From positions 1-54,872 of IMG/VR virus record IMGVR_UViG_3300017971_000334: 54,872 bases of DNA. One strand, 5' to 3'. Shown here in pieces: positions 6,248 to 54,372 of this stretch (positions are counted from its first letter, which is position 1; each line of letters starts with the position of its first letter). The notes under the pieces were generated by a model. It saw nothing but the letters and a program-made list of their open reading frames with translations, searched no databases and had not been told where the DNA came from. This DNA comes from a virus (Duplodnaviria; Caudoviricetes). The translations under genes and the position numbers were made by a program.

Positions 6248-6411
6248 TTGGGGGCCTCTAGGGGGAAATCTGAGCGCCTTGACAAAACTACCCCCCGTGC
6301 TGTACTTCATACGAAATAGGAGACCCGACATGTCAAGCTCGCCCTCCTGGAGCTGCTGAAGATCGTCGCCGCCCCCACCACCTACGCCTGATTGAACCCT
6401 TCCGGGGTCCT

Positions 6412-6789
6412 TCAATCGTTCCGGTGTCTCTCGTCCTCCTCGACGAGGCCCTCCATCCGCAGCCGGTGCAGTTCCCGCGCCATCATCGCCAACCGTCTCC
6501 CCAACGGATGCTCGTCGGGATTCCTCTCGGCCTCCGGGTGGCTGAAATACTCCTGTTCCTCCTCGATCAGCTCGTTCATCACCTGGTAGTATTCCTCTAC
6601 TTCCTCCAGCCGTTCCTTCCACAGCTCATCCGAGTCCCGGAACCCCAGCCAAGTCGGAACCAGCCTCGCCTGTCGTCGGGCCACGTCGAGGTGATGCTGG
6701 TGCAGGTTTCCCCCGTACCGTTCCCACCGGCGGAAGGCCGCCACGCCGACCCATATCCGGGGGTCCTTCAATGCTTCCGATGGCTTCAT
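6412..6789 (-). CDS. hypothetical protein
   Basis: 125-aa ORF with AAGGAG RBS, flanked on both sides by the 15-bp motif. Confidence 0.65.
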   Translation of the reverse strand: MKPSEALKDPRIWVGVAAFRRWERYGGNLHQHHLDVARRQARLVPTWLGFRDSDELWKERLEEVEEYYQVMNELIEEEQEYFSHPEAERNPDEHPLGRRLAMMARELHRLRMEGLVEEDERHRND

Positions 6790-6837
6790 ATCGTACTCCT
6801 TTCCTCTCGTTACTCGTTGATGAACCCTTCCGGGGTC

Positions 6838-7947
6838 CTATCCCTCGTCGGCCCGTTCGTAGGCCCCCTCGTTTTCCCGAAGCACCTCTTGGAACGACTT
6901 ACGGCGGGTGGGTGAGCCGTTGGACGCCAAGCGCCAGTACCAGGACTTTCCCTGCCGGTAGGACTGCACGTCGAGGTTTTTCTTGGCCCGCCGCAGGGTG
7001 GACTCGCTCACGTCGTCTCCCAGCTCCTCCAGCACGTCCTCGGCCTTTCGGGGTCCGTCGGCCAGCGCCCGACGGATCAGCTTTTCCGCCTGGTCGCAGG
7101 CTCCCGCCTGCGTCCCCGCCGCGCTTTCGGGGGAGATCAGGCCGTCGGCGCTCATGTAGAAGCTCTCCGGCTCGAACTGGATAATCCCGTCCTCGATGTC
7201 GAAGGCCATGCAGGGCGGTTCCGGTCCGAGGTTGAACTTGATGGGCGACAGTATCCTCCGTCCCCTTACCTCCCTGTCGAACGCCAGACCCCAGCCGCTG
7301 CGGGCCAGCGCGACAAACGCCAGCGAGCCGGTGGTCCTGTAAATCGCTCGAACCGCGTCGTTCTTGGTCAGGTGGCTGATGAGCAGTACGGCGGGCCTGC
7401 TGGGGGCCTCCCCTATCCAGTAGGACAGCGGTTCCAGCTTCGCCCTTACGTCGGCGTTCTTGTGGCTGTCCGTGGACCCCATGTAGCTGGTGATCGTGTC
7501 GATGACGATGAGTTGTAAATCGTCGATCTCCCCTATCCGTCGGGCCAGCAGGTCGATGTCCCGGTCCAGGTCGAACGTGTACCGCTTCAGGCTGCCCTTG
7601 ATGCGGCTGCCCTTGATGATCTTCACCTTCTTCTCGTCGGCTCCCACCTTCCGCATCCGGGGCTTGATGGTGTTGTTGGCTCTCTCCTCCGAGTTGAGGA
7701 TCATCACCGTGCCCTTCTCGAACCGCCCGTTCCCGTCCGGGCAGACGCCCCCCTTGGTAATCAGCGCCCCTATGGTCTGCGACAGGAAGCTCTTACCGGT
7801 GCCGGGGTCGCCGGACAGAATGGAGATCATGCCCTTGGGGATATGGTTCGGCCACAACCATTCGACTTCCTCCTCCTCTATATCGTACAGGTCCTCCTCG
7901 ATCAACTCCCACTCAGCCGGGGGTTTCCCGTTCGCCTCACTCGCCAT
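6838..7947 (-). CDS. RepA-like (AAA_25, RecA-fold) replicative helicase
   Basis: VEWLWP, Walker A GDPGTGKS, Walker B LIVIDT, LLISH, GSLAF...AR, KFNLG; C-terminal HTH-like STLRRAKKNL. Confidence 0.85.
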   Translation of the reverse strand: MASEANGKPPAEWELIEEDLYDIEEEEVEWLWPNHIPKGMISILSGDPGTGKSFLSQTIGALITKGGVCPDGNGRFEKGTVMILNSEERANNTIKPRMRKVGADEKKVKIIKGSRIKGSLKRYTFDLDRDIDLLARRIGEIDDLQLIVIDTITSYMGSTDSHKNADVRAKLEPLSYWIGEAPSRPAVLLISHLTKNDAVRAIYRTTGSLAFVALARSGWGLAFDREVRGRRILSPIKFNLGPEPPCMAFDIEDGIIQFEPESFYMSADGLISPESAAGTQAGACDQAEKLIRRALADGPRKAEDVLEELGDDVSESTLRRAKKNLDVQSYRQGKSWYWRLASNGSPTRRKSFQEVLRENEGAYERADEG

Positions 7948-7965
7948 CGGTGCCCTTTCCTGGTA

Positions 7966-8163
7966 CTAGCTATTAGAGTCGCGTGCCTCTCTGTATCCAC
8001 CCACCCACCCCTCTCGAAACCCGGCATACAGCAGAACCCGAAGGAGGGGGGACGTGTCGGGGTCGGGGGGGTGGTACACGTCTTGCAGGTTGATTACCTG
8101 GATGAATCGCTCAAACGCCTGGTAACAGGGGTCCGGCTCCAATTCTTCCGATTCGTCACTCAT
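7966..8163 (-). CDS. hypothetical protein
   Basis: 65-aa ORF with AGGAGA RBS. Confidence 0.55.
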   Translation of the reverse strand: MSDESEELEPDPCYQAFERFIQVINLQDVYHPPDPDTSPLLRVLLYAGFREGWVGGYREARDSNS

Positions 8164-8257
8164 GTCGTCTCCTGTCTAACCCTTCCGGGGTCCTTTTATC
8201 TCGTATTTCCTGCCCACACCCCCAGCAAAAACATAAAATAAAACCCGGCGATCAAGT

Positions 8258-8803
8258 TCATGGGTTTGCCTCGAAAAACGCACGGGCAAAACCTAGAGGC
8301 GTGATGCTCCTTAGTTTTGACCTCTCCGGCCCCGAAGACATCCAATGAATAGGGTTTGGACTTTCCGGTTCCACAGGAGTCGTAACCGGCCTAGTGAAAT
8401 TTCCCCACAGGCAGGTTTTTTTTGTGTACGGGTCTCCGTAATAGTATGGGTGAAAATACATCTCCGGCTTGCCTAGGTAATGCACCAGTCTGCCGACCGG
8501 ATTTTCAAGACACCACCATGCCGGATTACATCGCCATACAATTCTCATACACGCATCCACCACTGACAAACCATCCAGCAAGGCACCCTCCCCCTTTTCT
8601 TTCCACCACCGTGCCCCACTGCCAGCAAAATGAGTACATGGGGGTGCGGCTAGAATCCCGTGAACTTCGTCAGGAGGCATATACAACCTGACATCCTGCT
8701 CCGGCATCGTAATTACCCGCACGTCGTACCCGGCCTCCCAGTAGGGCCGGCTCCACGAGCCCGTTCCCCCACATAAGTCCAGTATAACCTTGTCTCGATT
8801 CAT
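8258..8803 (-). CDS. short phage DNA (cytosine-5) methyltransferase
   Basis: Motif I LDLCGGTG, catalytic AAPPC, motif VI ENPVG, C-terminal RSITPLGFA. Confidence 0.85.
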   Translation of the reverse strand: MNRDKVILDLCGGTGSWSRPYWEAGYDVRVITMPEQDVRLYMPPDEVHGILAAPPCTHFAGSGARWWKEKGEGALLDGLSVVDACMRIVWRCNPAWWCLENPVGRLVHYLGKPEMYFHPYYYGDPYTKKTCLWGNFTRPVTTPVEPESPNPIHWMSSGPERSKLRSITPLGFARAFFEANP

Positions 8804-9211: not shown

Positions 9212-9760
9212 TCACGGTGCCACCAGCAGCGGCACCAACTGTACCAGCGCGTTGGCGAAATCAGCCGTAATCTGACCGGCGATACGCCACTGTTCGACTC
9301 TCGCCAATGCCTCTTCCTTCGCCATGCCCTGCAATGACTGTAGGGCGGAGACCAGCGCGGGGGTCAGCTTTTCAATCGAGACGGAGATGTTCGTCTTAAA
9401 GTCTTTCAGTACCAGCATCGGTTCGCCGTCTCCCGGTACCGGCGTGTACTGCACTTCACCAATCTCGGTATCGCCTGGGGAGAACACCTGGAAGGGAATC
9501 GTGGTGTCCCCAAACGGCACCTGCCCGGACATCAAACCGCCGCTGACCGGCGTGTGAAACCAGTTCCCCTCCGTGTCCTGGCTGGCCTGCATCATTCCCA
9601 TTCCGGGCGACGACGCCGTGAGGTTGCCCTCGCTGTCGATAAAGCTGATGGCCGTCGTGTCCGTCACCGCCTTGATCGAACTGGGGGCGAGGGTTCGCTG
9701 GTTCCAAGTTTCACAACCTGCGAGGAGCAGGCCCAACATCACTACCACTACCTTTTTCAT
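9212..9760 (-). CDS. lipoprotein (possible spanin or superinfection-exclusion protein)
   Basis: MKKVVVVMLGLLLAG-C lipobox; hydrophobic C-terminus; adjacent to holin-like gene. Confidence 0.7.
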   Translation of the reverse strand: MKKVVVVMLGLLLAGCETWNQRTLAPSSIKAVTDTTAISFIDSEGNLTASSPGMGMMQASQDTEGNWFHTPVSGGLMSGQVPFGDTTIPFQVFSPGDTEIGEVQYTPVPGDGEPMLVLKDFKTNISVSIEKLTPALVSALQSLQGMAKEEALARVEQWRIAGQITADFANALVQLVPLLVAP

Positions 9761-9894
9761 GTCACTACCTTTCCGCCGGTTGTCCGGCAAAGTACGGACC
9801 CGCCCGCGGCTGAACCTTGTCGTGCGATATGAGCCACGGGCTGACGGGTCCGTCTGTAACAATTCCTGATGTCACGACAAAGTTCCATACCGCA

Positions 9895-9923: not shown

Positions 9924-9954
9924 GTCCGAAAAAAATAAAACCCTTCCGGGGTCC

Positions 9955-9983
9955 TTGACCGGGCGGGGAATATGTGGTATGCT
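9955..9983 (+). promoter_or_regulatory. rightward sigma70-like promoter of the virion operon
   Basis: TTGACC (9955-9960), 17 bp, extended -10 TGG-TATGCT (9978-9983); ATG at 9991 lies about at +1, so possibly leaderless. Confidence 0.7.
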
Positions 9984-9990
9984 GAAGTGT

Positions 9991-10554
9991 ATGGGTAACG
10001 AGAAAATGCCGTTTCAGAGCAACGAGGACTTCCTGCGGGGCTTGACGCGCAAGTCAGGGGCGGCGAACTCCCTCGCGTACCTGTTGCGGTTCGTGGATGC
10101 GAGCAGCCTGGGAGAGCTGTTGGAGAGGAAGGGATACGACGCCCAAGAGCACGTCGAGACGCTGGTGGACCTGATCCGTAATGCCGAGAAGGACGGGGAC
10201 CAGCTCCGGGCGCACCACGAGTTGAGCCGGGTGATCGAGTCGAGCGTACAGGCCGCCGTGCTGAAACCGTCGGTGGCCCCCCTCGATGAGCGGATGAGGG
10301 TGATTTCCGGGGAGTGCCGGGAGTTGCCGGAGGGGAAAGGAGAGGGGGCGTTGGAGGAATTTCTAAACCAGGTCGTAACCGAAACACTTGAGACAAGGAG
10401 ACCACAAGATGCCGAATCCCGAAGCCACGATGCCGTCTACGCCACCGGAGGAGAACGAGCCTCCGAGGGCACAAGCCACCGACCCCCTCATGACACCGGC
10501 TGCGCCGACGGGGGCATCAGCGCAATCAGGGACCCCGGAAGGGTCAAAGAATGA
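9991..10554 (+). CDS. putative terminase small subunit
   Basis: Helical protein, first gene of the operon upstream of TerL; assignment by position only. Confidence 0.5.
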   Translation: MGNEKMPFQSNEDFLRGLTRKSGAANSLAYLLRFVDASSLGELLERKGYDAQEHVETLVDLIRNAEKDGDQLRAHHELSRVIESSVQAAVLKPSVAPLDERMRVISGECRELPEGKGEGALEEFLNQVVTETLETRRPQDAESRSHDAVYATGGERASEGTSHRPPHDTGCADGGISAIRDPGRVKE

Positions 10555-12779: not shown

Positions 12780-13081
12780 ACGATGCCACGATTGTACTGA
12801 TGGTGCTGACGGGGGTGAGCTGGCTGGTCGGGTTGGGGATCATTGCTACGCTGGCCAAGGCGTTAAGGGGGACTCAACAGAAACTGACGGAGGTGGTGGG
12901 GATTCTGTCGCCCCGGAGGTCGCCCACTTTTTTTTGCCCCCCTGACAAACCGACCGGTCGGTCCGGTGGGATCGCCGAGGAGTTGCGGGAGATGGATAAG
13001 CCGAAAGAAGGGGAGCGGGAGCGGATTACGCACGGGTTGGGGATGGCGGGGATAGGAGGCAGAGATGGCGGGACGGTATGA
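12776..13081 (+). CDS. small protein with N-terminal transmembrane helix
   Basis: Hydrophobic residues 5-27; ATGA coupling to terL. Confidence 0.65.
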   Translation: MNDATIVLMVLTGVSWLVGLGIIATLAKALRGTQQKLTEVVGILSPRRSPTFFCPPDKPTGRSGGIAEELREMDKPKEGERERITHGLGMAGIGGRDGGTV

Positions 13082-15082: not shown

Positions 15083-16027
15083 ATGCCGGAAGACGAACCG
15101 AAAGACACGCCGAAAGACGAACCGAAAGACACCCCTGAAGGGACCCCGGAAGGGTTGCCGGAGGGCGTGGGGGGCCAGAAGGTCGAGGTGAAGGTCAACG
15201 GGGAGACAAAGACCTTGACGTATGACCAGTTACAGAAGCAGCTAGACGGGTACAAGAAGGAGTATGCCCACTACGGGGGGGCGGCACAGGCGATGGATGC
15301 CGCGAAGAAGATGGAGAAAGAGGCCAAAGAGAGTATGGAGAAGGCCCAACGGGGCTTGCGGATTGGAGAGTTGATCGAGAAGATACAGGGGGGCAACGCG
15401 GGGGTGGAGGATATTAACGAGTACTGCGAGACTTTTGGCCTGTCCGAGGAGCAACGAAACGAGATGTTGTACGGAACCAACGGAGATGACGGCAAGTCGA
15501 GCGGGAAGGACGATCTCATCACGGAGGACCGGCTGGACCCGTCGTTGCGGCAGAAACTGGAACGATTGGACACGATTGAGCAGAAAGAGGGGGAGGCGGA
15601 ATTTCAGGAATACGTGAAAGATTCCCTTGACAAGGTTGAGGGATATGGTAAGATAGTGAAGAGTTTGACCGACCGTGGTGTCGAAAAGAAAGACATCCAG
15701 GAGGTCAAAGACGGGCTGACCGATACGATCAGGAGTATTACGATACTCCGGATGCAGCAGGGTAAGAAGTATGGACCCGAACTGGTGCGCGGCGCCGCTG
15801 AGACGGCTGTCGAACGCATCCTGAAAATCGGCATCCAGACGCCCAAGCCGATAATTCCGGTGACTCCGGGACTCGGCGGCGGCGAGATGGCTTCGTTGAG
15901 TGCTGCGTTCCAAGAGGGATCTGAGCCCAAGCGAAAGCCCAGTGGCGACGACAACGAGGACGAGTACATAGACAACGTGAGCAAGCGGTTCTTTTACCGC
16001 TTGGGCAAGGCGATGCGTCGTTCCTAG
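15083..16027 (+). CDS. capsid scaffolding protein
   Basis: Acidic Pro-rich N-terminus, VKVNGETKTLTYDQL motif, coiled coil; between portal and capsid. Confidence 0.75.
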   Translation: MPEDEPKDTPKDEPKDTPEGTPEGLPEGVGGQKVEVKVNGETKTLTYDQLQKQLDGYKKEYAHYGGAAQAMDAAKKMEKEAKESMEKAQRGLRIGELIEKIQGGNAGVEDINEYCETFGLSEEQRNEMLYGTNGDDGKSSGKDDLITEDRLDPSLRQKLERLDTIEQKEGEAEFQEYVKDSLDKVEGYGKIVKSLTDRGVEKKDIQEVKDGLTDTIRSITILRMQQGKKYGPELVRGAAETAVERILKIGIQTPKPIIPVTPGLGGGEMASLSAAFQEGSEPKRKPSGDDNEDEYIDNVSKRFFYRLGKAMRRS

Positions 16028-17653: not shown

Positions 17654-17713
17654 CGAACGGGGGCCTCGGCGGGTTTTAACCCTTCCGGGGTCCTAGATAG
17701 GAGATAGAGTATC

Positions 17714-37177: not shown

Positions 37178-37187
37178 GAGATATGAC

Positions 37188-37619: not shown

Positions 37620-37627
37620 GGTGACAG

Positions 37628-41671: not shown

Positions 41672-41851
41672 GACCCCGGAAGGGTCGGATAAGGGGTTCA
41701 TAGAGGAGGGGGAAGTCGAGTCCGGAGCCGTTCGTTTATTTCCATTGTCGAATCTTCCATGCCGCTCTCCTACCCTTCCGGGGTCCTGGTATAGGTTTGG
41801 GGGAGGCTCCGTTGGGCTGACAGTTCACTAATAGTGGTAGTGCTGGCGTCG

Positions 41852-41880
41852 AGTTTGCACCATCCTATCATTTTTGTCAA
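41852..41880 (-). promoter_or_regulatory. possible leftward promoter in the convergence gap
   Basis: TTGACA (41880-41875), 17 bp, CAAACT (41857-41852). Confidence 0.35.
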
Positions 41881-41957
41881 TGTCCGACACCGTGTCGGAC
41901 AACCCATCGTTCAATGGATATGTTACCGGAGCCTCCCCCTAGTGACTTATCCTTTGG

Positions 41958-43039: not shown

Positions 43040-43050
43040 GGCGCACTCCC

Positions 43051-43494: not shown

Positions 43495-43532
43495 TGTGTC
43501 TCTCCTTATCGTTATAGGTTGACAGTGTGCCG

Positions 43533-44507: not shown

Positions 44508-45612
44508 TGGTATCTCCTTTCGGTTCGGTGGACCCTTCCGGGGTCCTGTATTCGGTTTCGATGACGGAGGGCCATGCGTTGGGGGAGCAGGCACATAGGT
44601 TGCAGTAGTCGCAAGGTCTCCCGTAGGGGTCGGTGCAGGAACGGTGGCGGCGGGGGAACACGAGGTCGAAGTCCTCGGTGAGCGGGTCGGGGCAGGTGGC
44701 GGCGCGGGCTACGTGGAGGATGGCGTATTGGACATCGAGGGGGGGACGTTCGTTGGGGTTGGGGGGGTAGTAGCGGGTGAGCTGGGCGACGGGGCGGATT
44801 TCGTTCTCGGTGTACCACTCCTGACAGCGTTTGACGTAGATGTCCCAGCGAGGGGCTCCGTGGTAGGTTTTCTTGTCGTACCATTGCCCCTTGTTGGGCC
44901 CGGATTTCTTCTGGACGCGGACGACGGTGAAGTCGCGGTCCTTCCCGCAGAACTTGATCGAGGGGGCCTGGACGCAGTTGAGTTGCAGTCCCTTGACGCG
45001 GCTGCCGTAGTCGTTGTCGGCAAGCCAGCGGTTGGCGAGCAGGCGGTATATCCAGTGGGCGTAGCCGTAGGGGTAGCCTGCGATGGCGACGGCGGGGTCG
45101 AAGGAGGTGGTCTTGTAGTCGAGGACGTAGATGCCGGAGTCGTAGGAGATGAGCAGGTCGAGGATGCCCTTGAGAGGTATACAACCGGCGTCGGCCTCGA
45201 TGGAGAGTTCCCGCCCGATAACCTTGGCGGTGTCGGGGAGGGGGTAGGATTCCCATACGATGTCGGCCATGACGCGAGCCATGTCGTAGGCGATGCGGTC
45301 ATCGTCGAGGTCCTTGGCGAGTCGTCCGTCGAGGTCGCCGGTCTTGTCGATCTGCCGGGCGATGTCCTTCTGGTTCTGTCGGTGTGTGGCCTCCACTTCC
45401 TGGACCCCGGAAGGGTCTCGTTGCATGAACAGGTGGAAGTAGGAGCCTCGGCTGCGGGAGAGGCTGACCCGTTCGTAGTGGGGTCGGAGCCGGAGCCGCT
45501 TCGAGAAGAGGAAGCGGCGCGGGCAGGTGAAGTAGGTGTCGCAGGCCGTGGGGCTGACGCGGGCGGGGTACACGGTCAGCCGTTCGGCGAGCTTTTGCAT
45601 TACGTCAGCCAT
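44488..45612 (-). CDS. PD-(D/E)XK exonuclease (RecB/Cas4-like, Cys cluster)
   Basis: SPT...CPRRF, GSYFH, GILDLL, VLDYKT, C-terminal C...C.YC..C. Confidence 0.85.
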   Translation of the reverse strand: MADVMQKLAERLTVYPARVSPTACDTYFTCPRRFLFSKRLRLRPHYERVSLSRSRGSYFHLFMQRDPSGVQEVEATHRQNQKDIARQIDKTGDLDGRLAKDLDDDRIAYDMARVMADIVWESYPLPDTAKVIGRELSIEADAGCIPLKGILDLLISYDSGIYVLDYKTTSFDPAVAIAGYPYGYAHWIYRLLANRWLADNDYGSRVKGLQLNCVQAPSIKFCGKDRDFTVVRVQKKSGPNKGQWYDKKTYHGAPRWDIYVKRCQEWYTENEIRPVAQLTRYYPPNPNERPPLDVQYAILHVARAATCPDPLTEDFDLVFPRRHRSCTDPYGRPCDYCNLCACSPNAWPSVIETEYRTPEGSTEPKGDTNDANGS

Positions 45613-45732
45613 GTCAGGTTCCTTGTTATCTCGTTGGTTCGTGTCCTTTAATGGAGGGGGGAGCAGCGCAGGGGCCTCCATCCGTTGCCGCTTCCCCTCA
45701 ACCATGCTCAAAAAGAAGGAAAAGCTATGTCA

Positions 45733-45761
45733 ATTGTAACACAGGTTTTGCGTAAAGTCAA
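45733..45761 (-). promoter_or_regulatory. sigma70-like promoter for the recombination genes
   Basis: TTGACT (45761-45756), 17 bp, extended -10 TGT-TACAAT (45738-45733). Confidence 0.7.
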
Positions 45762-45806
45762 CTATCCGGGCAAAAGTTTTTTTAAAACCCCGTGAGATTC
45801 AGCCCC

Positions 45807-46871
45807 CTATCGGTCCGCCGAGTCGGTGTAGCCGTAGAAGGTGACTTGGGTGTCGGCATTGGACATGACGGTCAGGGGTGCGTTGCGTCCGATCTTGATC
45901 GGGTGGGGAAAGGCCAGCATCTGCCCGGCAAGGTTCTCGGAGTGGACGCTGGGCAGGAGTTCGTGCGGGGGCGTCGCGCCGGAACTGTTGTTGTGGTAGT
46001 CTTGGAAGGGCGGCCCACCGCCGTTGGCCCACATCGTCGACGCTTCGAGGGTGCCGTCGTTGGCGCCCACCATGTCGACCGTGGTCGTGTTGGCACCACC
46101 GGAAATGTTACCCTCATCCATGTTCAGGGCGAACTGGAGGTTGGTTTCCGAGCCGGTGAACTTGGTGCCGACCAGCATCCCGTTATGTTTCGAGCAGTGG
46201 TTCCCGATGAGGGTGGCGTAGGAGCCGGACAGATCGGTGGCCACGTAGAGACCGAACTGGGCGAGGCCGACGGTCTTGGTCGCCGAGGTGCCCTTGCCGA
46301 GGTAGAGGTCGTTGGTGCCACCCACCAGCCCCCCGGTGCTGATACCGGATACGTCGTCGGTGGTGTTGTTTTCCACGCCGTCGATATACAGGATGAGGCC
46401 GTCGGTTTCGGCGTCCGCTTGGAAGTACAGGCCGCAGTGGTGCCATTGACCGTTGTTTACGGCGTGAGTACTGGTTACGCTGACGGCGGTTCCCGAATCG
46501 CCCACGGTGGCCTTGAGCTTCCCGTTGGCGTCGATCTCGAAGGTGTAGCCGTCCTTAGAGTCGACTTTCTGGATGAAGTCGGTAATGGAGACCTGGCTGG
46601 AGGCGATCTTGAACCAGAACAGGAACACGGCGTCCTTGCCGTTGGCTACTTGCACCCCGGTGGCGTTGGAAACGGTGATGAAGTCGGTGGCGGAACCGGC
46701 ATTGGACAGGATGTACTGTCGGCGGGGGAACGAGATGATAACGTTGTCGGCGCAGGAGTAGCCCACCACGTAGTGGCTGGATGCGAGGCCGGGGGACGTG
46801 AGTACGTCGAAACGGCCTGCGCCGCCGGTGTCGAGGGTGATGGGCCAGCGTTCGGATTGTACGGTATTCAT
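45807..46871 (-). CDS. LamG/ConA-like domain protein
   Basis: FWFK, VNNGQWHHC, LILYIDG, DLYLG, LNMDEG...VGANDGTL; start MNTVQ after GAAAGG. Confidence 0.75.
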   Translation of the reverse strand: MNTVQSERWPITLDTGGAGRFDVLTSPGLASSHYVVGYSCADNVIISFPRRQYILSNAGSATDFITVSNATGVQVANGKDAVFLFWFKIASSQVSITDFIQKVDSKDGYTFEIDANGKLKATVGDSGTAVSVTSTHAVNNGQWHHCGLYFQADAETDGLILYIDGVENNTTDDVSGISTGGLVGGTNDLYLGKGTSATKTVGLAQFGLYVATDLSGSYATLIGNHCSKHNGMLVGTKFTGSETNLQFALNMDEGNISGGANTTTVDMVGANDGTLEASTMWANGGGPPFQDYHNNSSGATPPHELLPSVHSENLAGQMLAFPHPIKIGRNAPLTVMSNADTQVTFYGYTDSADR

Positions 46872-46920
46872 GGCATTGCCTTTCTGCGTCGCCCATAGGG
46901 GGTTTTTCGACGCGCCTGTA

Positions 46921-46977
46921 ATAAAAAGGAAGGGTGGGGCCAAACCGCGCGGGCTTGCAGCCCCACTTAACCCTTCC
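46921..46977 (-). terminator. possible intrinsic terminator built partly from the 15-bp motif
   Basis: Minus strand GGAAGGG-TTAAG-TGGGGC...GCCCCA-CCCTTCC followed by TTTTTAT. Confidence 0.45.
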
Positions 46978-47122
46978 GGGGTCCTCGTTTTCGTTTCTTA
47001 CGTCCGGCGTTGGCGTGGCTGAGGGCGATGGCGACCGCCTGTTTGTGCGGTTTGCCGTGCGCCTGTTCGGTGCGGATGTTTTCACTGATTACTTTTTGGC
47101 TTTTCCCTTTACGCAGGGGCAT
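46967..47122 (-). CDS. small basic conserved phage protein (below ORF-track cutoff)
   Basis: MPLRKGKSQKVISENIRTEQAHGKPHKQAVAIALSHANAGRKKRKRGPRKG; QAVAIAL family; AAGGAG RBS. Confidence 0.75.
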   Translation of the reverse strand: MPLRKGKSQKVISENIRTEQAHGKPHKQAVAIALSHANAGRKKRKRGPRKG

Positions 47123-47747
47123 GTTTGGACTCCTTGGGCAGCATTCGGTATTCGTCCTCCAAGTGGGGGGCGGGGGGTATGCCGCGTTCCGATTCTGGAA
47201 CCCTTTCGGGGTCCGTCAGGGAGTTGAGTCGTTGGTAGGTCAGGTGCAGCAGGACGTAGCTGGTCAGGTGTTGAGCGACGACGGTGCCGAGGCGGGTGCG
47301 GTGCTTGGCGTTGGAGCCCCACGGAAGCCACAGGAGGTTAAGTTTCATGCGGGCGACGGTGTACTGCATCCAAGAGAGCAGGATGTCGGGGTTGCCCGGC
47401 AGTGGCGGAGTCGGGTTGAAGAATGAGGCCGGTGTCGCTTCGAGGAGTATGGTCGGGTGGGCGCAGGACCGGGTGAGGCGCACGAAGGCGCGTCCGGCGC
47501 GGTGGCGGTCGGTGCCGAGAAGGTTAGAGTAGAGTTCCTGGACGGTGGCCTTGCGCTCAACGATGCAGAGGTTGGTGTATTCTGCTATCCGATAGTCACC
47601 GGTGGGGAGGGTAGCCTTGCGGGTCGTGAGCCCGATGACGCGGGTGGTTAGGTCGAATGGATCCCGAACGGTGATGGTGGCTGGGAAGGAGAGCGGGTGC
47701 TGTTCGCGGGTGTCGATCTCGACTGTCAGCTTTGACGGTAGTTGCAC
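47109..47747 (-). CDS. ERCC4/XPF-family nuclease
   Basis: IDTREQ, LPTGDY, IVERK, LLE. Confidence 0.85.
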   Translation of the reverse strand: MQLPSKLTVEIDTREQHPLSFPATITVRDPFDLTTRVIGLTTRKATLPTGDYRIAEYTNLCIVERKATVQELYSNLLGTDRHRAGRAFVRLTRSCAHPTILLEATPASFFNPTPPLPGNPDILLSWMQYTVARMKLNLLWLPWGSNAKHRTRLGTVVAQHLTSYVLLHLTYQRLNSLTDPERVPESERGIPPAPHLEDEYRMLPKESKHAPA

Positions 47748-49693
47748 AGTTCCGATACCTCGTATCTGAGTGTTACCCTACGTGGCTGCTCAAATATACC
47801 AAAAAGGGATGGGCTTGTCAAGTGGTCGGGAAGAATTTTTTTGACGGTGGACAGCTCGGAAGCGGGGCAGTCGAGGTCGATGGAGTCATAGGTTTGGGAG
47901 CACATCCGGGTACGGAGGCCGAGAGAGCGGAGAGAGAGGAGGAGGGTGTACTGGCAGTGCTGGGTGATCTGGGCGGCGAGGCACTGCACGGGGAAGTTGC
48001 AGATTTCCGTGACGCAGGCGAGGGCGGCCTTGCCGGGGGGAAAGGTGCGAGACCAACCGGTGGGCAGGGAGAGGTAGCCGTCGCGGGAGGCGGAGTCGAT
48101 GAGTTCCGACTGCCACTGGCGGAAGCGGGGGTAGCGGGCGTTGAAGGCATGGATGATTTCCTTGCAGGCGGCGGGGGTGAACTCTCGGTCGAGCAGGCGC
48201 AACAGTTCGTAGTCGCGGGCCCTGCCCGCATCGGTCAGGAGGGTGGAGCGGAACTTGTCGGGACCGCCGAGGTAGAGGACGAGAAAGTTGAGCGTTTTCC
48301 CGGCGGCGCGGTAGATTTTGGTGAAGTCGGCGGGGGTGGGGGACGAGAGTTGGAGGGTGTCGATAATGAGCTGGCCGGTGACGGCGTGGCGGTCGACGCG
48401 GGCGTCCCATTCGTCGAGCATAGTCGGGTCTTGGGAGAGGAAGGCGGCGCAGGCGATTTCGAGTTGCTCGAAGTCGGCGGACAGGCGGGTGCCGGTGAGG
48501 TAGCGGGAGCGGTGGCAGGCTTTGATTTCCGGGGGGAAAGTTTGCAGGCCGGGCTTCGTAGCGGTGATGCGGCCTTGGATGGTGCCCTTGGAGTCGGTGG
48601 AGGACTTGCCGTAGCCGGAGGGAACGAGGTGCCACGAAGGGTAGCACATCGTGGGGGTGGTGAGGCCCTTGGTGCGGGAGGTGAGCAGGGGCTTGTAGTA
48701 GGAGGAGCGAATCTTGGCGAGGTCGGTGTGTTCGTAGATGAGTTCTACGCGGAGGCGGTCGGGGCTGTCGGCGGGCAGGTCGGCGAGCAGTATCTGGAGG
48801 TTGTTCTTGTTGATGCAGATGTCGTGGCGTTCCTTGGTGCGTTCGGTGCGGGGGTCGGAGAGCAGGTTGTGGGCGAGGAAGCACTCGTTGATGAACAGTC
48901 GCTTGGAGGTATCGGAACCCTTGCCCTGAAGGGTGATGTGGTGGGAGTCTGCGGTTTCTACAAGGGTGTTGATCCGCTCCAGATGGGTGTCTGCCGCCCT
49001 TTCGAGGGCGTAGCGGGACATACATACCCCCGACTCCCGCATTTCGAGCCCTACGCGGATTAGGGCGTGGCGATGGTCGGAGCAGGTGGCCGAAAGTTTG
49101 GGGGAAGAGGGGCCGTACTTTTGACGGATGCGGTCGAGGATGAGATCGTAGAGCTGGAGGGTGCGGACGGCATCGGCGGCGTTGTAGTGATGGAGATGGG
49201 AGTCCCACGGTCCGGTGGCGTTGCCCTTCGAGCCGGTGACTTTTTCGGTGGTGTAGGAACCGGGGCCGAAGAGGGTGGTGAGCGGTTTGAGGGCCTTTTC
49301 CGGTCGTTGCTCGAAGTCGAGGAAGTTTACCAACATCAGGTCGTCGTAGCGGAGAGGGCCGCCGACGCGGGTCAGGTAGGAGATGTAGGGGTCCACGTGG
49401 CGGAGCACACAGAGATCGAACACGAGGTTCTGGCCGAGGATGACGGCACCGTGGTCGTGGGCGAGCTTGAGCCACCGGCGCAGGTTGCGGCGGTGAGCGT
49501 GGTCGGAGTAGATAAAGACGGCGGAGTCGTAGCCGGTGGGCGTGCGCCAGCCGAGGGCGACGGAGACGACCGTGTTGTCGGGGGTGAACCCGTCCACAAC
49601 TTCCATTTGTACGGGATGGAAGGTGGTTTGCGTTTGCTCGAAGAGGATGCCGCGAGTTTCGATGTCCAGCGAGAGGATGTCGGGGAAGTTCAT
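47726..49693 (-). CDS. family A DNA polymerase with 3'-5' exonuclease
   Basis: ExoI LDIET, ExoII QNLVFD, ExoIII YNAAD; GRIT, motif A ADFEQLE, motif B R..GKTLNFLVLY, NFPVQ, motif C TYDSI. Confidence 0.92.
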   Translation of the reverse strand: MNFPDILSLDIETRGILFEQTQTTFHPVQMEVVDGFTPDNTVVSVALGWRTPTGYDSAVFIYSDHAHRRNLRRWLKLAHDHGAVILGQNLVFDLCVLRHVDPYISYLTRVGGPLRYDDLMLVNFLDFEQRPEKALKPLTTLFGPGSYTTEKVTGSKGNATGPWDSHLHHYNAADAVRTLQLYDLILDRIRQKYGPSSPKLSATCSDHRHALIRVGLEMRESGVCMSRYALERAADTHLERINTLVETADSHHITLQGKGSDTSKRLFINECFLAHNLLSDPRTERTKERHDICINKNNLQILLADLPADSPDRLRVELIYEHTDLAKIRSSYYKPLLTSRTKGLTTPTMCYPSWHLVPSGYGKSSTDSKGTIQGRITATKPGLQTFPPEIKACHRSRYLTGTRLSADFEQLEIACAAFLSQDPTMLDEWDARVDRHAVTGQLIIDTLQLSSPTPADFTKIYRAAGKTLNFLVLYLGGPDKFRSTLLTDAGRARDYELLRLLDREFTPAACKEIIHAFNARYPRFRQWQSELIDSASRDGYLSLPTGWSRTFPPGKAALACVTEICNFPVQCLAAQITQHCQYTLLLSLRSLGLRTRMCSQTYDSIDLDCPASELSTVKKILPDHLTSPSLFGIFEQPRRVTLRYEVSELCNYRQS

Positions 49694-49750
49694 TTTATGC
49701 CCTGACTGTGATACGGGTGGCTTTCACTTCGATTTCGGTTAGGTTGTTTC

Positions 49751-50452
49751 TCATGGTAAAATCCTTTCGGGGTTCGGGTTGAGGGTATAGTGGATGTTGT
49801 CGGGGAGAGCCCTTTCGGGGTCCCCAGCGAGGTGGCGGGCGAGGAGGTCCCAGTGGAGCTCGGTCGCCTCGACCCACTGGGGGTTTCGGCCCGTGAAGAG
49901 GGCAGCGGGGTGGTAGGTGCAGAAGCAGTAGGGATTGACGGTGGTGGTGAGGTCGGGGAGTTCGGGGTGGAGGGAGCAGAAGCGGTGGCCTTGGCAGTGG
50001 AAGGCCGCCGAGAGCTTGCGGTTGAAAATGGCGTAGGAGGCGGACGCGCCGTTGGCGAAGAGGACGACGTGGGGGTAGGCGGTGCAGAGGATGTCGATGT
50101 CGGCGAGGAGCCACCGGCGACGGCAGTAGCGGACCTGGGACACGGTGGGCTTTTTTCCGAGCGGGGGACGACAGCGGCAGGCGTTGGCGAGGTAGATGTC
50201 GGCGTGGTCGGCGAGGTGGGTCTGGACAAGGAAGGACGAGAGCAGTTCGCCGGTGCGTCCGATCCACGAGGTGCCGGAGCGGTCCTCCTGGGAGCCGGGC
50301 GCTTCGCCGACGATAAGGACGCAGCGCGGCATCCGTTCCCTGTTTGGCGAAAACAGACGGGTCGGGATGCCTACGCTGCGGTTCCCGGAGGTATGCCGCA
50401 GGGCGCACTTGTCGTGGTCACACCCGGTACTGTCGATAAACGAGAGAATCAT
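49751..50452 (-). CDS. family 4 uracil-DNA glycosylase-like protein
   Basis: CDHDKCAL, IVGEAPG, WIGRTG, NACRCRPP, C, TYHPAA. Confidence 0.85.
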   Translation of the reverse strand: MILSFIDSTGCDHDKCALRHTSGNRSVGIPTRLFSPNRERMPRCVLIVGEAPGSQEDRSGTSWIGRTGELLSSFLVQTHLADHADIYLANACRCRPPLGKKPTVSQVRYCRRRWLLADIDILCTAYPHVVLFANGASASYAIFNRKLSAAFHCQGHRFCSLHPELPDLTTTVNPYCFCTYHPAALFTGRNPQWVEATELHWDLLARHLAGDPERALPDNIHYTLNPNPERILP

Positions 50453-50889
50453 TTCTTCGTCCGCCGCATTGCCACCTGCATGGAGCCGATCACACCGGAC
50501 AGTTCCTTGAGGATGTGGTACTTTTCCGTGAAGGCTTGCATGTCCCGATAGGCTTCCTTGAGGAGCTGGTCCCGAAGGATGGAGGATGCCATCACGTCGT
50601 TGATGGTGCGGTAGCCGCCACCGGAACGGTTGCGGTCCGAGCCTACGCTGACGTAGGTGCGGGTGGGCATGTCCTCCCGGACGGTGACGAATACTCGAAT
50701 GAGGCGGCGGGCCTCTTCCAATCGGTACTCGTGGGCGGCTTTGGCGTCGTCCCATGTAAAGTATTGGTGGAGTGGGGACTTTTCCTTCTCGGCGGCCTTC
50801 ACTACCGAGGCAGGGCGCAGTACGCCCCGACCCCGCTTACGGATTTTCTCTAGTTCCTGGTACACTTCGTCTTTCTTTTTCATATTCAT
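50449..50889 (-). CDS. conserved phage protein downstream of the RAMP/array locus
   Basis: LRPASVVKAA...SPLHQYFTWDDAKAAHEYRLEEARRLIR; GGAG RBS. Confidence 0.75.
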   Translation of the reverse strand: MNMKKKDEVYQELEKIRKRGRGVLRPASVVKAAEKEKSPLHQYFTWDDAKAAHEYRLEEARRLIRVFVTVREDMPTRTYVSVGSDRNRSGGGYRTINDVMASSILRDQLLKEAYRDMQAFTEKYHILKELSGVIGSMQVAMRRTKK

Positions 50890-50944
50890 AGCTATCTCCT
50901 ATTGTCGTAAATAGTACGGTACGGGTTGGGTTCCTTCATTCGTT

Positions 50945-51069
50945 GTCGTGTCTGTCTTGTCGTGTCCTGTCCGGTCTAGTCTAGTCAGGTCGTGTCGTGT
51001 CTGTCTTGTCGGGTCGGGTCTCGTCTGGTCTAGTCGCGTCTTGTCAAGTCTGTCGAGTTACGTCTAGTC
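50945..51069 (-). ncRNA. (GAC-NN)n pentamer array, candidate guide RNA
   Basis: 26 phased triplets (25 GAC, 1 AAC) separated by variable dinucleotides, with a single-A spacer every tenth unit; begins inside the TGA stop of the RAMP-like gene; non-coding. The repeat is certain, the RNA role is inferred. Confidence 0.7.
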
Positions 51070-51703
51070 ACTTTAGTTTGAAGGTTCCCAAACCCATACC
51101 GTTTGCTTTTCGGGAATCGTGACGGCCCTCACCGATGCCGACCTGTATCCCCACGCGGAGGAACAGGTTGGTGATGTCGGCGAGGGTAAACATATTGGCG
51201 TCGTATTGGATCTTCACATGGGCTTCCCACCCGGCATCCCACTGGGGTAAGGGATGGATGTCCATCACGCCGGATTCGAGACGGCAAGGGACATCGACCC
51301 GCCGGGGTGTACCCCTAGTGATGCGAACGAGGGGGGTTCCATCGGTTTCGTCGTGTCCGTCAGCGATGCAGAACAGGGAGAGCTTGGCCCGCGTCATAGT
51401 GAACTCTACAAGGCGGCAGGCGCTGATGAGGGCGTTCCGAAACGCACTGGCAGGGATGCCTTTCCACCCCTTCGGAGAGGAATGGATGCACCCTCTGTAC
51501 ATCTCGTCGAAGTTTTTGGGAGGTTTGGCCTTTCGTTTTCCCCGTTGAGCGGAGCCCGCCTCCTGCGCCTCGATCATCGTGATACGTGCTTTGTGGGAAA
51601 ATTTGTTTTGGCGGTAGGGGGCGGTACCAACGATGTGGAACTCGGCGATGGGAAGGTTGGGGGGTGAAATAGCGACTTTTTCTTTTTTCGTGACTTTTGC
51701 CAT
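51068..51703 (-). CDS. stand-alone RAMP (Cas7/Csm3-like) protein
   Basis: FHIVGTAPY first strand, GIPASAFRNAL (compare IPGSSLKG..R of Cas7-group RAMPs), C-terminal Gly-rich loop VGIGEGR...GMGLGTF; AGGAGA RBS. Confidence 0.75.
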   Translation of the reverse strand: MAKVTKKEKVAISPPNLPIAEFHIVGTAPYRQNKFSHKARITMIEAQEAGSAQRGKRKAKPPKNFDEMYRGCIHSSPKGWKGIPASAFRNALISACRLVEFTMTRAKLSLFCIADGHDETDGTPLVRITRGTPRRVDVPCRLESGVMDIHPLPQWDAGWEAHVKIQYDANMFTLADITNLFLRVGIQVGIGEGRHDSRKANGMGLGTFKLK

Positions 51704-51820
51704 TAGGTTTCTCCTAAGTTAAGTAAGGTCCAAAGGACCCCGGAAGGATTATAAATTCTCAGGTTCACGACCCGCTTGGTCCATTTTTTCAATTTTATCC
51801 TTTATATAATCCGCCACTTA

Positions 51821-52159
51821 TCACCTCGTTGCCCCCGCGTAATCGTTTAGGTTTATTTCGCTGCACCATATTCGCCGAAATACCAGGTGATACCGGGGAT
51901 ACGAGTTCGGCTCGTTTTCCGGGTCCGCGAACGAGCAGCCCCATCCGTAGTCGATGTGGTCCGTCGTCAATACCAAATCGTAGCTGCGGATAAAGATCCG
52001 CTCGTTCGGATCGGGGCTAGGGTCTTTCCACACGACGCCCTGCACCCGCCGCGGCGTCATCTCCAGCCAGTTCTCCAACACGTACCGTTCCCGCTCCCCC
52101 GCCCCCCCGCCGGCGGCAATGACACCCGCAATAATCAGGATAAAATAGTACCTTTTCAT
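51821..52159 (-). CDS. hypothetical protein with signal peptide / TM helix
   Basis: MKRYYFILIIAGVIAAG N-terminus. Confidence 0.6.
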   Translation of the reverse strand: MKRYYFILIIAGVIAAGGGAGERERYVLENWLEMTPRRVQGVVWKDPSPDPNERIFIRSYDLVLTTDHIDYGWGCSFADPENEPNSYPRYHLVFRRIWCSEINLNDYAGATR

Positions 52160-52959
52160 GTTTTCTCGTCTTTAAACTTATCTGTTGCGCTCTTCAGCAC
52201 CTTACCGATCTTCTCCATCAATAAATTCACTTCGCCCATTTTTGTCAGCAGATACCTTTCCCCGCTTGTCATTCGGATACGCCCGGTCCCCATACCCATC
52301 CCCGCGGGTTCAGTGACCGCGCCTTTACTACTCTGCGAAGCGGCGCTTCCGACCTTCTTCCCCCGGATAGGCCGGGCGTAACAATAGTACGATCCTGCGG
52401 AGTGGTATGGGAAACCATCCCCCGGCGAGATCCCGCGAAAGCTATCTTTTACCCATGTTTCCCCATCATCGGAAAACTCCGCCTCTTCGTCCCATACGAA
52501 CGCGGGGCCGAGGATTTGGTTTGAGTTTATCGGGTATCGTTTATGGCCCGGAAATCGAACCATATAATGATAATTGGAATCGAGGGGGCCGTCGATAACG
52601 ACGACCCGATCCGTACCCCGCAAGGCATCTTCCATTATAGTGGTAAATCCCCCCAGTACATTCTCTTGCTCCATCAGCTTCTTGGGTTTAACGATCACCC
52701 GATCCCCAATCTGATATTCCGGCTTATAATAATTCATTATGCAGCTCCTTTCTTCTATTTGTACTCCTCCGCTAGACTCATTTATTTCTAACCAAGTAAG
52801 GTACGCCCCAGAAGGTGCCGATAAAGAAGAGTTTTGCACTTTATCACGAGAAATCATTAACTCAGGTGAGATCGAAACGACACTCGCCGCGCTCCCCAGC
52901 GCATTGCTAATCTTTTCCACCCGATCCCCAACCTGATATTCCGGCTTATAATAATTCAT
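52156..52959 (-). CDS. hypothetical protein with duplicated MNYYKPEYQxGDRV N-terminus
   Basis: Two in-frame starts (52959 and 52737), each with an RBS; KOW-like GDRV motif. Confidence 0.65.
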   Translation of the reverse strand: MNYYKPEYQVGDRVEKISNALGSAASVVSISPELMISRDKVQNSSLSAPSGAYLTWLEINESSGGVQIEERSCIMNYYKPEYQIGDRVIVKPKKLMEQENVLGGFTTIMEDALRGTDRVVVIDGPLDSNYHYMVRFPGHKRYPINSNQILGPAFVWDEEAEFSDDGETWVKDSFRGISPGDGFPYHSAGSYYCYARPIRGKKVGSAASQSSKGAVTEPAGMGMGTGRIRMTSGERYLLTKMGEVNLLMEKIGKVLKSATDKFKDEKT

Positions 52960-53153
52960 TTGGTATCACCTCCTTTCGGTGCGTCGGGCAGAGGGCACCA
53001 GTCGGGGATGTCGGTCAGGCAGACGCCCCGATGGCCCTCGGTGAGACGACAATAGAAGTCAGGGTACTGTTGGGGTTGCTGTCCGATGGACGGCTCGCCC
53101 AAGTAGGGGCAGTGGTAGCAGCGGGTTATGGTGAGGGTTACGGTTTTGGACAT
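52956..53153 (-). CDS. small Cys-rich protein (CxxCP...C...IPDWCPL)
   Basis: Common small phage motif; AGGAGA RBS. Confidence 0.65.
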   Translation of the reverse strand: MSKTVTLTITRCYHCPYLGEPSIGQQPQQYPDFYCRLTEGHRGVCLTDIPDWCPLPDAPKGGDTK

Positions 53154-53189
53154 TAGAGTTCTCCTTCAGGTAAGGTACAGGGGTATCTC

Positions 53190-53780
53190 CTAATCCCACC
53201 GTTGGAAAGAGGGGGAAAGTTGCTGGTTTTGTTTCGTAATAGCGTCCGGGTTGGAGTTGAGAATGGCCTTGGCCAGTTCGAGGATGGTGCCGGAACAGAC
53301 TTCGTAGCCGCGTTTCTGGTAGTTGAAGGCGCGGCGGATGCTGTCGAGTTCGTAGCCGGTCTGGATTTGGTGGACGGAGAGCCGCTTGGTGAGTACGGAC
53401 CAGACGGCCTGCACGGTGGAGTAGATTATCTCGCCGTCGTATCCGAACTGACAGATGGTATAGTCGAACTTGTCGAGGGTGGTCAGGATGTCGTCGGAGA
53501 ACACTTTGATGAGTTGGATGGGCGCGTCTCGGAACCGGTAGGTGTCGGCTCGGTCGTGCTTCCACGAGAGATGGGAGTCCTCGATTCGGTTCAGACGTCG
53601 GAAGTTGTCGAGAGAGGGTTGGTTTTTGGCGAAGACGTCGATGTCCTTGGTCTTTTCGTCGCCGGTGAACCAGGAGCGGATGCAGCCGCCACAAAGCCAT
53701 ACGGATTTGTCGTCGGGGAGTTCGACCGGGGGTTGTTCACCGGACATAATGTCGAGGGGTAGTTCGATAGGTACAATCAT
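53190..53780 (-). CDS. nucleotidyltransferase (CCA/poly(A) polymerase head-like)
   Basis: LCGGCIR, KDIDVF (DxD), IQLI, FDYTICQ, R...YQKRGY. Confidence 0.75.
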   Translation of the reverse strand: MIVPIELPLDIMSGEQPPVELPDDKSVWLCGGCIRSWFTGDEKTKDIDVFAKNQPSLDNFRRLNRIEDSHLSWKHDRADTYRFRDAPIQLIKVFSDDILTTLDKFDYTICQFGYDGEIIYSTVQAVWSVLTKRLSVHQIQTGYELDSIRRAFNYQKRGYEVCSGTILELAKAILNSNPDAITKQNQQLSPSFQRWD

Positions 53781-54046
53781 GGGGTTTGCCCTTTCTGCCG
53801 CAGGCAGGCGGCGTGGATGGAGGGTCGAAAGAGGGTTGAGAGGGGGTCGTCGGGGCCGGACCAGGAGTCGTAGATGGCTTGGAGTACGGGGGTGGGGATG
53901 CGGTAGATGTGGGTGGGGCGCACGTGGGTTCCGGGCAACCTGGGGAGGTAGTGCCGGATGCAACAAGTCTTGGAGTTCGCGGAGATGCACTCGCAGAGGT
54001 GCGACCTGGTTCCATACGTGTAGCCGAGTAGGTGGCGGGGTGTCAT
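53777..54046 (-). CDS. hypothetical protein
   Basis: 89 aa, ATGA coupling downstream, AAAGGAA upstream. Confidence 0.5.
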   Translation of the reverse strand: MTPRHLLGYTYGTRSHLCECISANSKTCCIRHYLPRLPGTHVRPTHIYRIPTPVLQAIYDSWSGPDDPLSTLFRPSIHAACLRQKGQTP

Positions 54047-54058
54047 GGCAGGTTCCTT

Positions 54059-54157
54059 TCATAATGCGGTGGTTAGGGTTTCACAGCCCCTTAGGGCGAA
54101 CAGGGCGACGAACAGGCAGAAGCCCCAGATGGCGATGTGGACGGGGATGTCTTTCAT
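54059..54157 (-). CDS. 32-aa hydrophobic peptide
   Basis: MKDIPVHIAIWGFCLFVALFALRGCETLTTAL; ATGA overlap with upstream gene. Confidence 0.45.
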   Translation of the reverse strand: MKDIPVHIAIWGFCLFVALFALRGCETLTTAL

Positions 54158-54372
54158 AGGTCATCGCTTTCTCCAGACCCTTCCGGGGTCCGGTATGGTG
54201 GGTCCAGGGAGTCGGCACCCACAAGTTCGATGGTTGGGTCGTACCCCTGCGGGGTGACGGAGCCGGGGCAGACCGGGTGCATGGGACACCAGGGCCACCT
54301 AGCGTTGTCGTCGTAGTAGTCGGGGTCCCATTGCAGGCCGCAACCGGAGCAGAAGTAGATTTCCGGCGTCAT
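54154..54372 (-). CDS. small zinc-ribbon-like protein
   Basis: CSGC...CP..PVC; coupled to neighbours. Confidence 0.55.
   Translation of the reverse strand: MTPEIYFCSGCGLQWDPDYYDDNARWPWCPMHPVCPGSVTPQGYDPTIELVGADSLDPPYRTPEGSGESDDL

Follow-up and report, generated by a model that had tools for sequence, protein, structure and literature searches.

The DNA analysed here, referred to below as the window, is the complete 54,872-bp virus record IMGVR_UViG_3300017971_000334 from an uncultured marine phage. The window contains a repeated word, GGACCCCGGAAGGGT, a non-palindromic and asymmetric 15-mer that we found in 19 exact copies, 7 on the + strand and 12 on the - strand (6396-6410 to 54177-54191). 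Most of the whole genomes related to the window also contain a repeated word, and the word differs from genome to genome. In our judgement, the balance tips slightly towards GGACCCCGGAAGGGT being a phage-private docking or recognition word in duplex DNA that is kept for its copy number, and the words of the lineage are probably docking sites for a putative DNA-reading factor rather than promoters or RNA hairpins. An earlier reading of the window from its letters (the sequence-only reading) had proposed a genome-wide binding site, and a genome-wide recognition site was still the best reading after the comparisons described here.

The copy number of the word was far above chance. Dinucleotide shuffles of the window (n = 100) gave a mean exact count of 0.00, so that the 19 exact copies reported by the sequence-only reading were borne out. 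Four variants with one or two mismatches were also present (33785, 47200, 49809 and 51735), which brought the total within two mismatches to 23 against 0.33 expected; the sequence-only reading had counted five variants, of which four were recovered at this threshold and the fifth was probably the site at 7042, with three mismatches. Six further sites resembled the word with three mismatches, and two of the six had a GAAA change in common. The 9-mer cores of the word numbered only 22 compared with the 23 copies within two mismatches, indicating that no cloud of partial copies surrounded it. The flanks of the copies were unrelated to one another, except that an A often preceded the word and a T or C often followed it; the word therefore often comprised 16 bases when the leading A was included. 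As the sequence-only reading had noted, no copy was present in the first 6.3 kb, where 2.5-3.0 copies were expected; with P(0) = 0.05-0.08, this absence was weak evidence and was not significant alone.

We found the copies to be real DNA and not adapter or assembly artefacts, since they recurred in contigs of independent runs. Logan contigs from four runs of four studies spanned 36000-54872 with nine exact and three variant copies, and the runs listed as holding window DNA, none of which was an RNA run, came from independent seawater and sediment samples. The artefact that the sequence-only reading had raised as a possible refutation was thus ruled out. The four-run contigs were nearly clonal: over 36000-54872 they differed by three substitutions outside the terminal repeat zone, no copy being affected, a comparison that bears on reproducibility only. 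Outside this phage, the word was rare: an exact-match scan of viral collections found single chance copies only, and the matches listed for the genome and metagenome collections were likewise single chance copies. The sole locus with two copies in these scans was part of a longer repeat, no window protein matched the genome loci that hold the word, and Rfam gave no meaningful match for it. A host-borne word, such as a Chi site or an uptake sequence, was therefore unsupported by the matches listed, although a host that carries one may exist.

The constraint lay on the nucleic acid rather than on an encoded peptide, as the sequence-only reading had concluded. As described there, the copies gave the peptides GPRKG, DPGRV and TPEG from three sense frames and PSGV from the antisense strand. 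A codon-preserving shuffle, which that reading had proposed as a check, supported the same conclusion: when synonymous codons were shuffled (n = 100) with the non-coding DNA kept unchanged, the 11 codon-overlapping copies were lost and were regenerated in 0 of 100 shuffles, and the eight (rarely nine) surviving copies were the untouched non-coding ones. The statement that the word was written into coding sequences was correct for these 11 of the 19 exact copies but was overstated as a general description, as eight copies were non-coding and five of the 11 lay in the last 20 codons of a gene.

To place the word in its lineage, we compared the window with 11 whole records of a family of phage contigs of ~45-57 kb that was defined by terminase homologues (12 genomes in total; TerL 25-53% identical). 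Neither IMG/VR nor the cultured phages contained close kin in searches with TerL and PolA; the best protein match was 45% identical, and cultured phages matched at ~25% protein identity only. No close relatives were available for a synonymous-site test, as locus pairs were either ~100% identical or unalignable. A k-mer survey of the family contigs revealed that many carry a repeated word of their own, and private words of 9-15 bases, in about 20-60 copies each, were present in 10 of the 12 whole genomes (core-word counts of 21, 28, 57, 29, 24, 57, 52, 31, 38 and 27). In addition to GGACCCCGGAAGGGT in the window (G000), the words were GGAGCCCGGAGTGA in G001 (25 exact 13-mers), GAGGTGTGGGGG in G002 (50 exact copies), TCTGCGGGGCA in G005, TCTGCAGGGGCT in G006, CTGCGGAGG in G007, TCTGTCGGGG in G008, TGACGGGGGACGGGG in G009, GACGGGTCGGGG in G011 and GCTGTGGGAGGGGGG in G012. 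The word of G001 was the closest to that of the window, with 10 of 14 positions equal when compared by eye, and every private word was G-rich on one strand. A search for the motif in related phages and hosts, as suggested by the sequence-only reading, thus found different words in the relatives and, among the matches listed, single copies in the genome collections. The two remaining genomes, G003 and G004, had no word by 6- to 11-mer tests, one-mismatch neighbourhoods included. G003 (L251-L253) also lacked the replication and recombination module (polymerase, UDG, ERCC4, AAA_24 and nuclease; tblastn), and G004 had this module.

The copies in the nine word-bearing relatives were strand-neutral, with 176 in the sense and 167 in the antisense orientation. 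In particular, nearly all genes of G005, G006 and G007 are on one strand, and the copies in these genomes were about equally distributed on both strands. Copies within 50 nt upstream of start codons showed no preference either (31 sense and 24 antisense in the ten genomes, p = 0.42). The spacing fitted random placement in all ten genomes, with a coefficient of variation of 0.75-1.07 against ~0.95 for random positions; Okazaki-type priming sites were considered and rejected, as no regular spacing was found. In the nine relatives, 84 of the 343 copies were intergenic, compared with 9-14% non-coding DNA, and most copies were therefore intragenic. Within genes, the copies were placed at poorly conserved residues: 74 of the 134 copies in core-family genes fell in the least conserved quartile of their own protein (Wilcoxon p = 7e-7). 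In two relatives, a copy was accommodated by codon choice in the conserved LTxEGQ stretch of the terminase, in different registers, which indicates that copies arise by substitution and not by insertion alone. An origin by insertion was rejected, as no indel was present at alignable copies and no flanking duplications were seen by eye.

On a manual gene map of the window with 92.4% coding and 7.6% non-coding DNA, eight of the 19 exact copies were non-coding or touched only a stop codon (p = 4e-5 against the 7.6% non-coding genome), five were in the last 20 codons of a gene, one was at codons 20-25 and five were deep inside genes (two sense and three antisense). In total, 13 of the 19 were at gene boundaries (p = 1e-7). 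Seven copies preceded a start codon by 9-44 nt, and a separate Shine-Dalgarno sequence usually followed the word; three genes ended in a TAG whose G was the first base of the word. Among the exact copies, 14 were sense, four were antisense and one (9940) was between divergent promoter-like sites; with the four variants included, the numbers were 17, 5 and 1, close to the 18, 5 and 1 given by the sequence-only reading. The bias of 14 in 18 had a two-sided p of 0.03, which became ~0.3 after correction for the 10 genomes tested.

The genome is organised in three arms, and the leftward arm (1-9.8 kb) encodes small open reading frames (ORFs), an AAA_25/KaiC-type ATPase and a DNA methyltransferase. 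Three exact copies in this arm are sense and on the - strand: 6396-6410 is non-coding and starts 1 nt past the stop of 6412-6789; the first G of 6824-6838 is the final base of the TAG stop of 6838-7947, with the next start 34 nt downstream; and 8179-8193 is non-coding, 15 nt before the start of 7966-8163. The copy at 9940-9954 (-) is between divergent sigma-70-like promoter sites, where it adjoins the -35-like TTGACC (9955-9960) of the rightward site and is followed on the - strand by a T-run and TTGACA.

The rightward arm (~10-41.7 kb) encodes a Mu-type large terminase (PHROG 38), portal- and capsid-sized core genes, glycosyltransferases, methyltransferases and a conserved 1042-aa protein. 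Its first copy, 10530-10544 (+), is sense and occupies codons 184-189 of 192 in the disordered tail of 9979-10554, with the next start 44 nt downstream. The sense copy at 15141-15155 (+) covers codons 20-25 of 15083-16027 and may be upstream of the true start of this gene. The copy at 17679-17693 (-) is non-coding and antisense, between 16142-17653 and 17714-18637; 26079-26093 (-) is antisense at codons 28-33 of 25997-26530; and 26530-26544 (+) is sense, its first G closing the TAG stop of 25997-26530, with the ATG of 26554-27510 located 9 nt downstream. Two sites are within 33637-35688, namely a sense variant at 33785-33799 (+), with one mismatch that gives a GGAT end, and an antisense exact copy at 34064-34078 (-). 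The sense copy at 36567-36581 (+) is internal to 35699-37177, and that at 39745-39759 (+) lies within the 1042-aa core gene, where the family alignment is gapped and variable. The first G of the sense copy at 41671-41685 (+) closes the TAG stop of 38543-41671. The non-coding copy at 41772-41786 (-) is the right half of a convergent pair with 41671; the two are separated by 86 bp and mark the meeting point of two gene arms. The relative G009 (L257-L259) has convergent pairs of its 15-base word 35-45 bp apart (12850-12915 and 14573-14646 of L258), one of them directly after the homologue of the 1042-aa gene, which is the position of the window pair.

The second leftward arm (42-54.7 kb) encodes Cpn10-like, AAA_24, PD-(D/E)XK, ERCC4, family-A polymerase, UDG-family and Gad2-like proteins. 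The copy at 42418-42432 (-) is sense and precedes the ATG of 41958-42398 by 19 nt; it falls within 42395-43075 (codons 215-220 of 227). The PD-(D/E)XK nuclease gene contains a sense copy at 44532-44546 (-), codons 389-394 of 408, with the ATG of the AAA_24 gene 24 nt downstream, and an antisense copy at 45402-45416 (+), which the nuclease accommodates in a variable loop, with no indel when aligned to its homologues. The copy at 46970-46984 (-) is sense and forms the final five codons of 46967-47122. Three variants follow: 47200-47214 (-), with one mismatch (GAAA), is sense and lies where the ERCC4 protein extends beyond the C terminus of its homologues; 49809-49823 (-), with two mismatches, is sense and close to the 3' end of the UDG-family gene; and 51735-51749 (+), with one mismatch and a GGAT end, is non-coding and antisense. 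The last exact copy, 54177-54191 (-), is sense and located upstream of the Gad2-like gene, in 54154-54372 (codons 61-66 of 73).

To account for these features, the most likely arrangement would be one sequence-specific DNA-reading factor that docks at the word with high affinity and co-evolves with it. Selection would act on the DNA itself and chiefly on copy number, not on site or direction, so that copies would accumulate wherever 15 fixed bases are tolerated. Gaps between a stop codon and the following ribosome site would be filled first, and copies would then enter gene ends that are dispensable and protein loops that vary. In the window, the sense bias and the placement at boundaries may thus be side effects of tolerance, and an antisense word would place CCUUCC, which resembles an anti-Shine-Dalgarno sequence, beside ribosome sites. 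We infer that a protein reads the word and that this reader is phage-encoded. Within the docking reading, the mechanism that we tentatively prefer is an address that would concentrate a DNA-handling machine on the phage rather than the host chromosome, a role that we consider, as opposed to a transcriptional function, possible but below even odds. Such an address would work by number, and packaging recognition, a recombination or nuclease module and replication are candidate machines. Promoters, mRNA elements and polar roadblocks are disfavoured because each of these needs a single orientation and the lineage shows none.

Several observations weigh against this docking reading. The sense bias of the window persisted in the 42-54 kb arm, where the + strand GC skew does not flip; the copies thus follow transcription and not GC skew, and a transcription-linked role in the window phage is accordingly possible. 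A 15-mer would also have had to arise without visible intermediates. Word similarity was weakly related to TerL identity (rho 0.26, a value reached by 287 of 5000 permutations), and the gene maps of the relatives came from a crude self-trained ORF caller. Copy density was modestly lower in orphan genes (0.48 per kb) than in core genes (0.68 per kb; p = 0.02), a depletion that was reversed in three genomes, the window included. Furthermore, scans of the window with Pfam (68 ORFs) and PHROG (20 ORFs) revealed no helix-turn-helix (HTH) protein, repressor, ParB or similar protein. When gene presence was compared with word presence by tblastn, BLAST clustering and iterated hidden Markov model search, no gene family was present in all 10 word-bearing genomes and absent from the two word-free ones.

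The absence of a recognisable cognate regulator, which the sequence-only reading had pointed out, was upheld by these scans and comparisons, and a zinc-finger pattern search gained no candidate. As no gene family tracks the word, the reader would belong to the core proteins, to the fast-evolving orphans or to the host, and a novel repressor may be present among the remaining orphan ORFs. One conserved small gene, 9979-10554 (+), is located just upstream of the terminase large subunit gene and is flanked by the copies at 9940 and 10530. Its family was present in eight of the 12 genomes, had no Pfam or PHROG match and gave an AF2 model of low confidence (pLDDT 54). The product is a candidate small terminase or DNA-recognition subunit; nothing links the gene to the word.

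The docking reading can be extended to a viral counterpart of uptake- or Chi-type self-recognition, in which each phage would tag its chromosome with a private word read by its own machine, for example a packaging recognition subunit or a recombination nuclease. Word-richer genomes would win the machine in co-infected cells and copies would multiply, and divergence of the dialects would isolate lineages from each other and from parasites of the same machinery. We regard this extension as rather unlikely.

Among the alternatives, a stoperator-like network in the window phage survived best and is still unlikely. A repressor would bind an operator at 9940 and further sites at gene junctions, where it would impose a polar block on transcription. 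An asymmetric 15-bp site in ~23 dispersed copies, of which 14 of 18 are co-oriented with transcription and 13 of 19 are at gene boundaries, is what such a network would look like, and the copy at 9940, which lies between promoter-like sites that diverge, adjoins a -35-like hexamer. The genome also recalls Cluster A phages (PMC6550527) in its two-arm architecture and in encoding PolA and a Cas4-family nuclease. However, no repressor or HTH protein, integrase or parABS was found in the scanned ORFs, and the orientation bias did not withstand correction for 10 genomes. The relatives showed no polarity, even those with nearly all genes on one strand, and their copies were mostly intragenic. The oriented, stoperator-type action that the sequence-only reading had drawn as a parallel was therefore not supported.

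A Chi-like word, read by a processive nuclease or recombination machine (the phage PD-(D/E)XK and AAA_24 proteins, or a host machine) that would protect or activate DNA ends, is distinctly less probable. Known Chi sites are 5-8 nt long, host-owned and abundant in host genomes, whereas the word is 15 nt long and no genome among the matches listed holds many copies. Its attraction is that the words are all G-rich on one strand and that the PD-(D/E)XK nuclease and AAA_24 genes were present in all 10 word-bearing genomes, G003 lacking both module and word; this association was offset by G004, which has the module without a word. The orientation in the window would fit entry from ends near 41.7 kb. 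The density of ~1 per 1-2.5 kb is like that of Chi-rich lambdoid phages, which have 20-32 sites, but those phages are strongly polar (20:3 and 32:0; PMC12315714) and the relatives examined here are not.

It is more doubtful still that the word is a by-product without a reader, multiplied by a mutational or repair drive or left as the footprint of micro-insertions. The copies are exact in an all-or-none manner with few intermediates, their placement is random and the phage has a DNA methyltransferase, as such a drive would suggest. In alignable proteins, however, the copies replace residues without indels, and the flanks showed no consistent duplication or inverted repeat (by eye only). Moreover, a 15-mer is unreachable from chance near-matches, of which 0.33 were expected within two mismatches, and the methyltransferase was common to one relative only.

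An RNA element is very improbable. In this explanation, a small C(GNRA)G hairpin would serve boxB-type antitermination, RNA processing or translation, which would suit the sense bias and the copies 9-44 nt upstream of seven start codons. The sequence-only reading had proposed the fold CCC-GGAA-GGG, which is indeed possible at -4.3 kcal/mol with a GGAA loop, and the GAAA variants that it cited do exist; the inference that they preserve a GNRA loop carries no information, because the change affects the N of GNRA, which is free to vary. By contrast, the stem-breaking change from GGGT to GGAT occurred twice in the window without compensation, 4 of the 19 exact copies are antisense, and the words of the nine relatives are strand-neutral and do not fold (0 to -0.8 kcal/mol). 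With no Rfam match in addition, the boxB or GNRA hairpin was not sustained. Fifteen-base promoters are known in marine T7-like phages and several sense copies are 9-44 nt upstream of start codons, but a promoter for a phage-encoded RNA polymerase or sigma factor has next to no chance of being correct, given that Pfam found no RNA polymerase family among window proteins of at least 600 aa, that no D-x-D-G-D motif was present in the proteins of the window gene calls, and that antisense and intragenic copies and strand-neutral relatives are at odds with it.

Further features of the window genome were observed. The block at 1837-4789, word-free and lower in GC, has its own junction repeat, with eight copies of a 31-nt unit and five of a 70-nt unit. 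On the coding (-) strand, each repeat presents a G/C hairpin and then ...ACGGAAAGGGTAAAAAAATGAAAA (ribosome site and start) before successive small genes, and the block resembles an array of cassettes with an origin of its own. A 181-aa DNA methyltransferase is encoded at 8258-8803 (-) (PHROG 757, 2e-48); it was missed by Pfam and had a homologue in G011 only. An Atlas search of 9212-9790 was uninformative. Three family-2 glycosyltransferases and two SAM methyltransferases were found among 28 ORFs scanned together, mostly from the structural arm; their location is probably 26554-31177 (+), and they may form a virion glycosylation cluster. The profile of the 1042-aa core protein found nothing meaningful in the PDB. 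The gene at 41958-42398 (-) encodes a Cpn10 (GroES-like) co-chaperonin (Pfam 2e-7) common to five relatives. The 290-aa protein of 53190-54062 (-) resembles Gad2, an anti-Gabija protein (Atlas 0.95; 30 of 30 matches in the Gad2 family), and also matched a PHROG nucleotidyltransferase (7e-12); its homologue was present in G001 only. No tRNA was found in the window. The sequence-only reading had named a RAMP complex as a possible binding partner, and no RAMP or Cas family appeared in the Pfam or PHROG scans, nor did an integrase; the lineage is apparently lytic.

The + strand GC skew was positive over 10-54 kb, across the gene-strand switch at 41.7 kb where the AT skew flips, and the cumulative GC skew had its minimum near 8-10 kb. 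Replication that starts near the divergent promoter region could account for this skew. ORFs run off both record ends (54555-54872 and 1-606, +) and contain proline-rich, extensin-like tandem repeats. The record ends in other samples contained 60- and 75-base joints that go back, which indicates that the repeat number varies and that the record may close on itself.

Dispersed private words in phages are known mainly as repressor sites of temperate actinophages. The literature search returned papers on stoperators, Chi and uptake sequences, and none of those with open main texts dealt with strand-neutral private words in a phage lineage. What is new here is a marine, apparently lytic lineage without a cultured relative in which 10 of 12 genomes keep their own strand-neutral word. 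The copies are written into genes at a cost to proteins, a pattern that points to a DNA-level self-recognition system. If general, such words would bear on how phage DNA is told from host DNA, on recombination barriers between phages, on the recoding of phage genomes and on the prediction of phage kinship from word dialects.

The word is not assigned to stoperators, uptake sequences or Chi, and each known system shares only part of its features. The C1 operators of phage P1 are asymmetric, monomer-type sites dispersed over the genome at promoters, in a temperate phage with a known repressor. The word is similarly an asymmetric site scattered over a phage genome, but the promoter siting and known repressor of P1 have no demonstrated counterpart here. 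The stoperators of Cluster A mycobacteriophages (L5 gp71-type) are mainly in one orientation relative to transcription (PMC6550527); they have genome-specific versions that differ between relatives, and they come with a recognisable repressor in temperate phages (see also PMC9283540). Like these, the word is asymmetric, in the range of 13-15 bp, dispersed in tens of copies over a genome of ~50 kb and specific in its version to one genome, and the window copies are mostly at gene junctions and co-oriented with transcription. Unlike these, it is accompanied by no repressor or lysogeny gene that we found, and in the relatives the copies are strand-neutral and mostly intragenic.

Chi-rich lambdoid phages such as LLS and MD8 carry 20-32 sites of a host 8-mer with polarities of 20:3 and 32:0 (PMC12315714). 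The resemblance is in 20-32 copies of a G-rich word at ~1 per 2 kb, which are accumulated actively and are few in modules of recent acquisition; the difference is that the host 8-mer is oriented to one genome end, whereas the word here has 15 bases, is phage-private and is unoriented in the relatives. Uptake sequences of Neisseriaceae and Pasteurellaceae (PMC2817400 and PMC3630211) occur in either orientation, at poorly conserved amino acids and in dialects. They belong to bacterial chromosomes, where they number hundreds to thousands and serve the competence machinery as recognition sites; in contrast, the present word is phage-private, no cellular genome among the matches listed has many copies and a phage has no uptake step. 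Like uptake sequences, the words of this lineage are far above chance, occur in either orientation, are written into genes where amino acids are poorly conserved and are somewhat rarer in genes without homologues, though not in every genome, and relatives carry dialects of their own.

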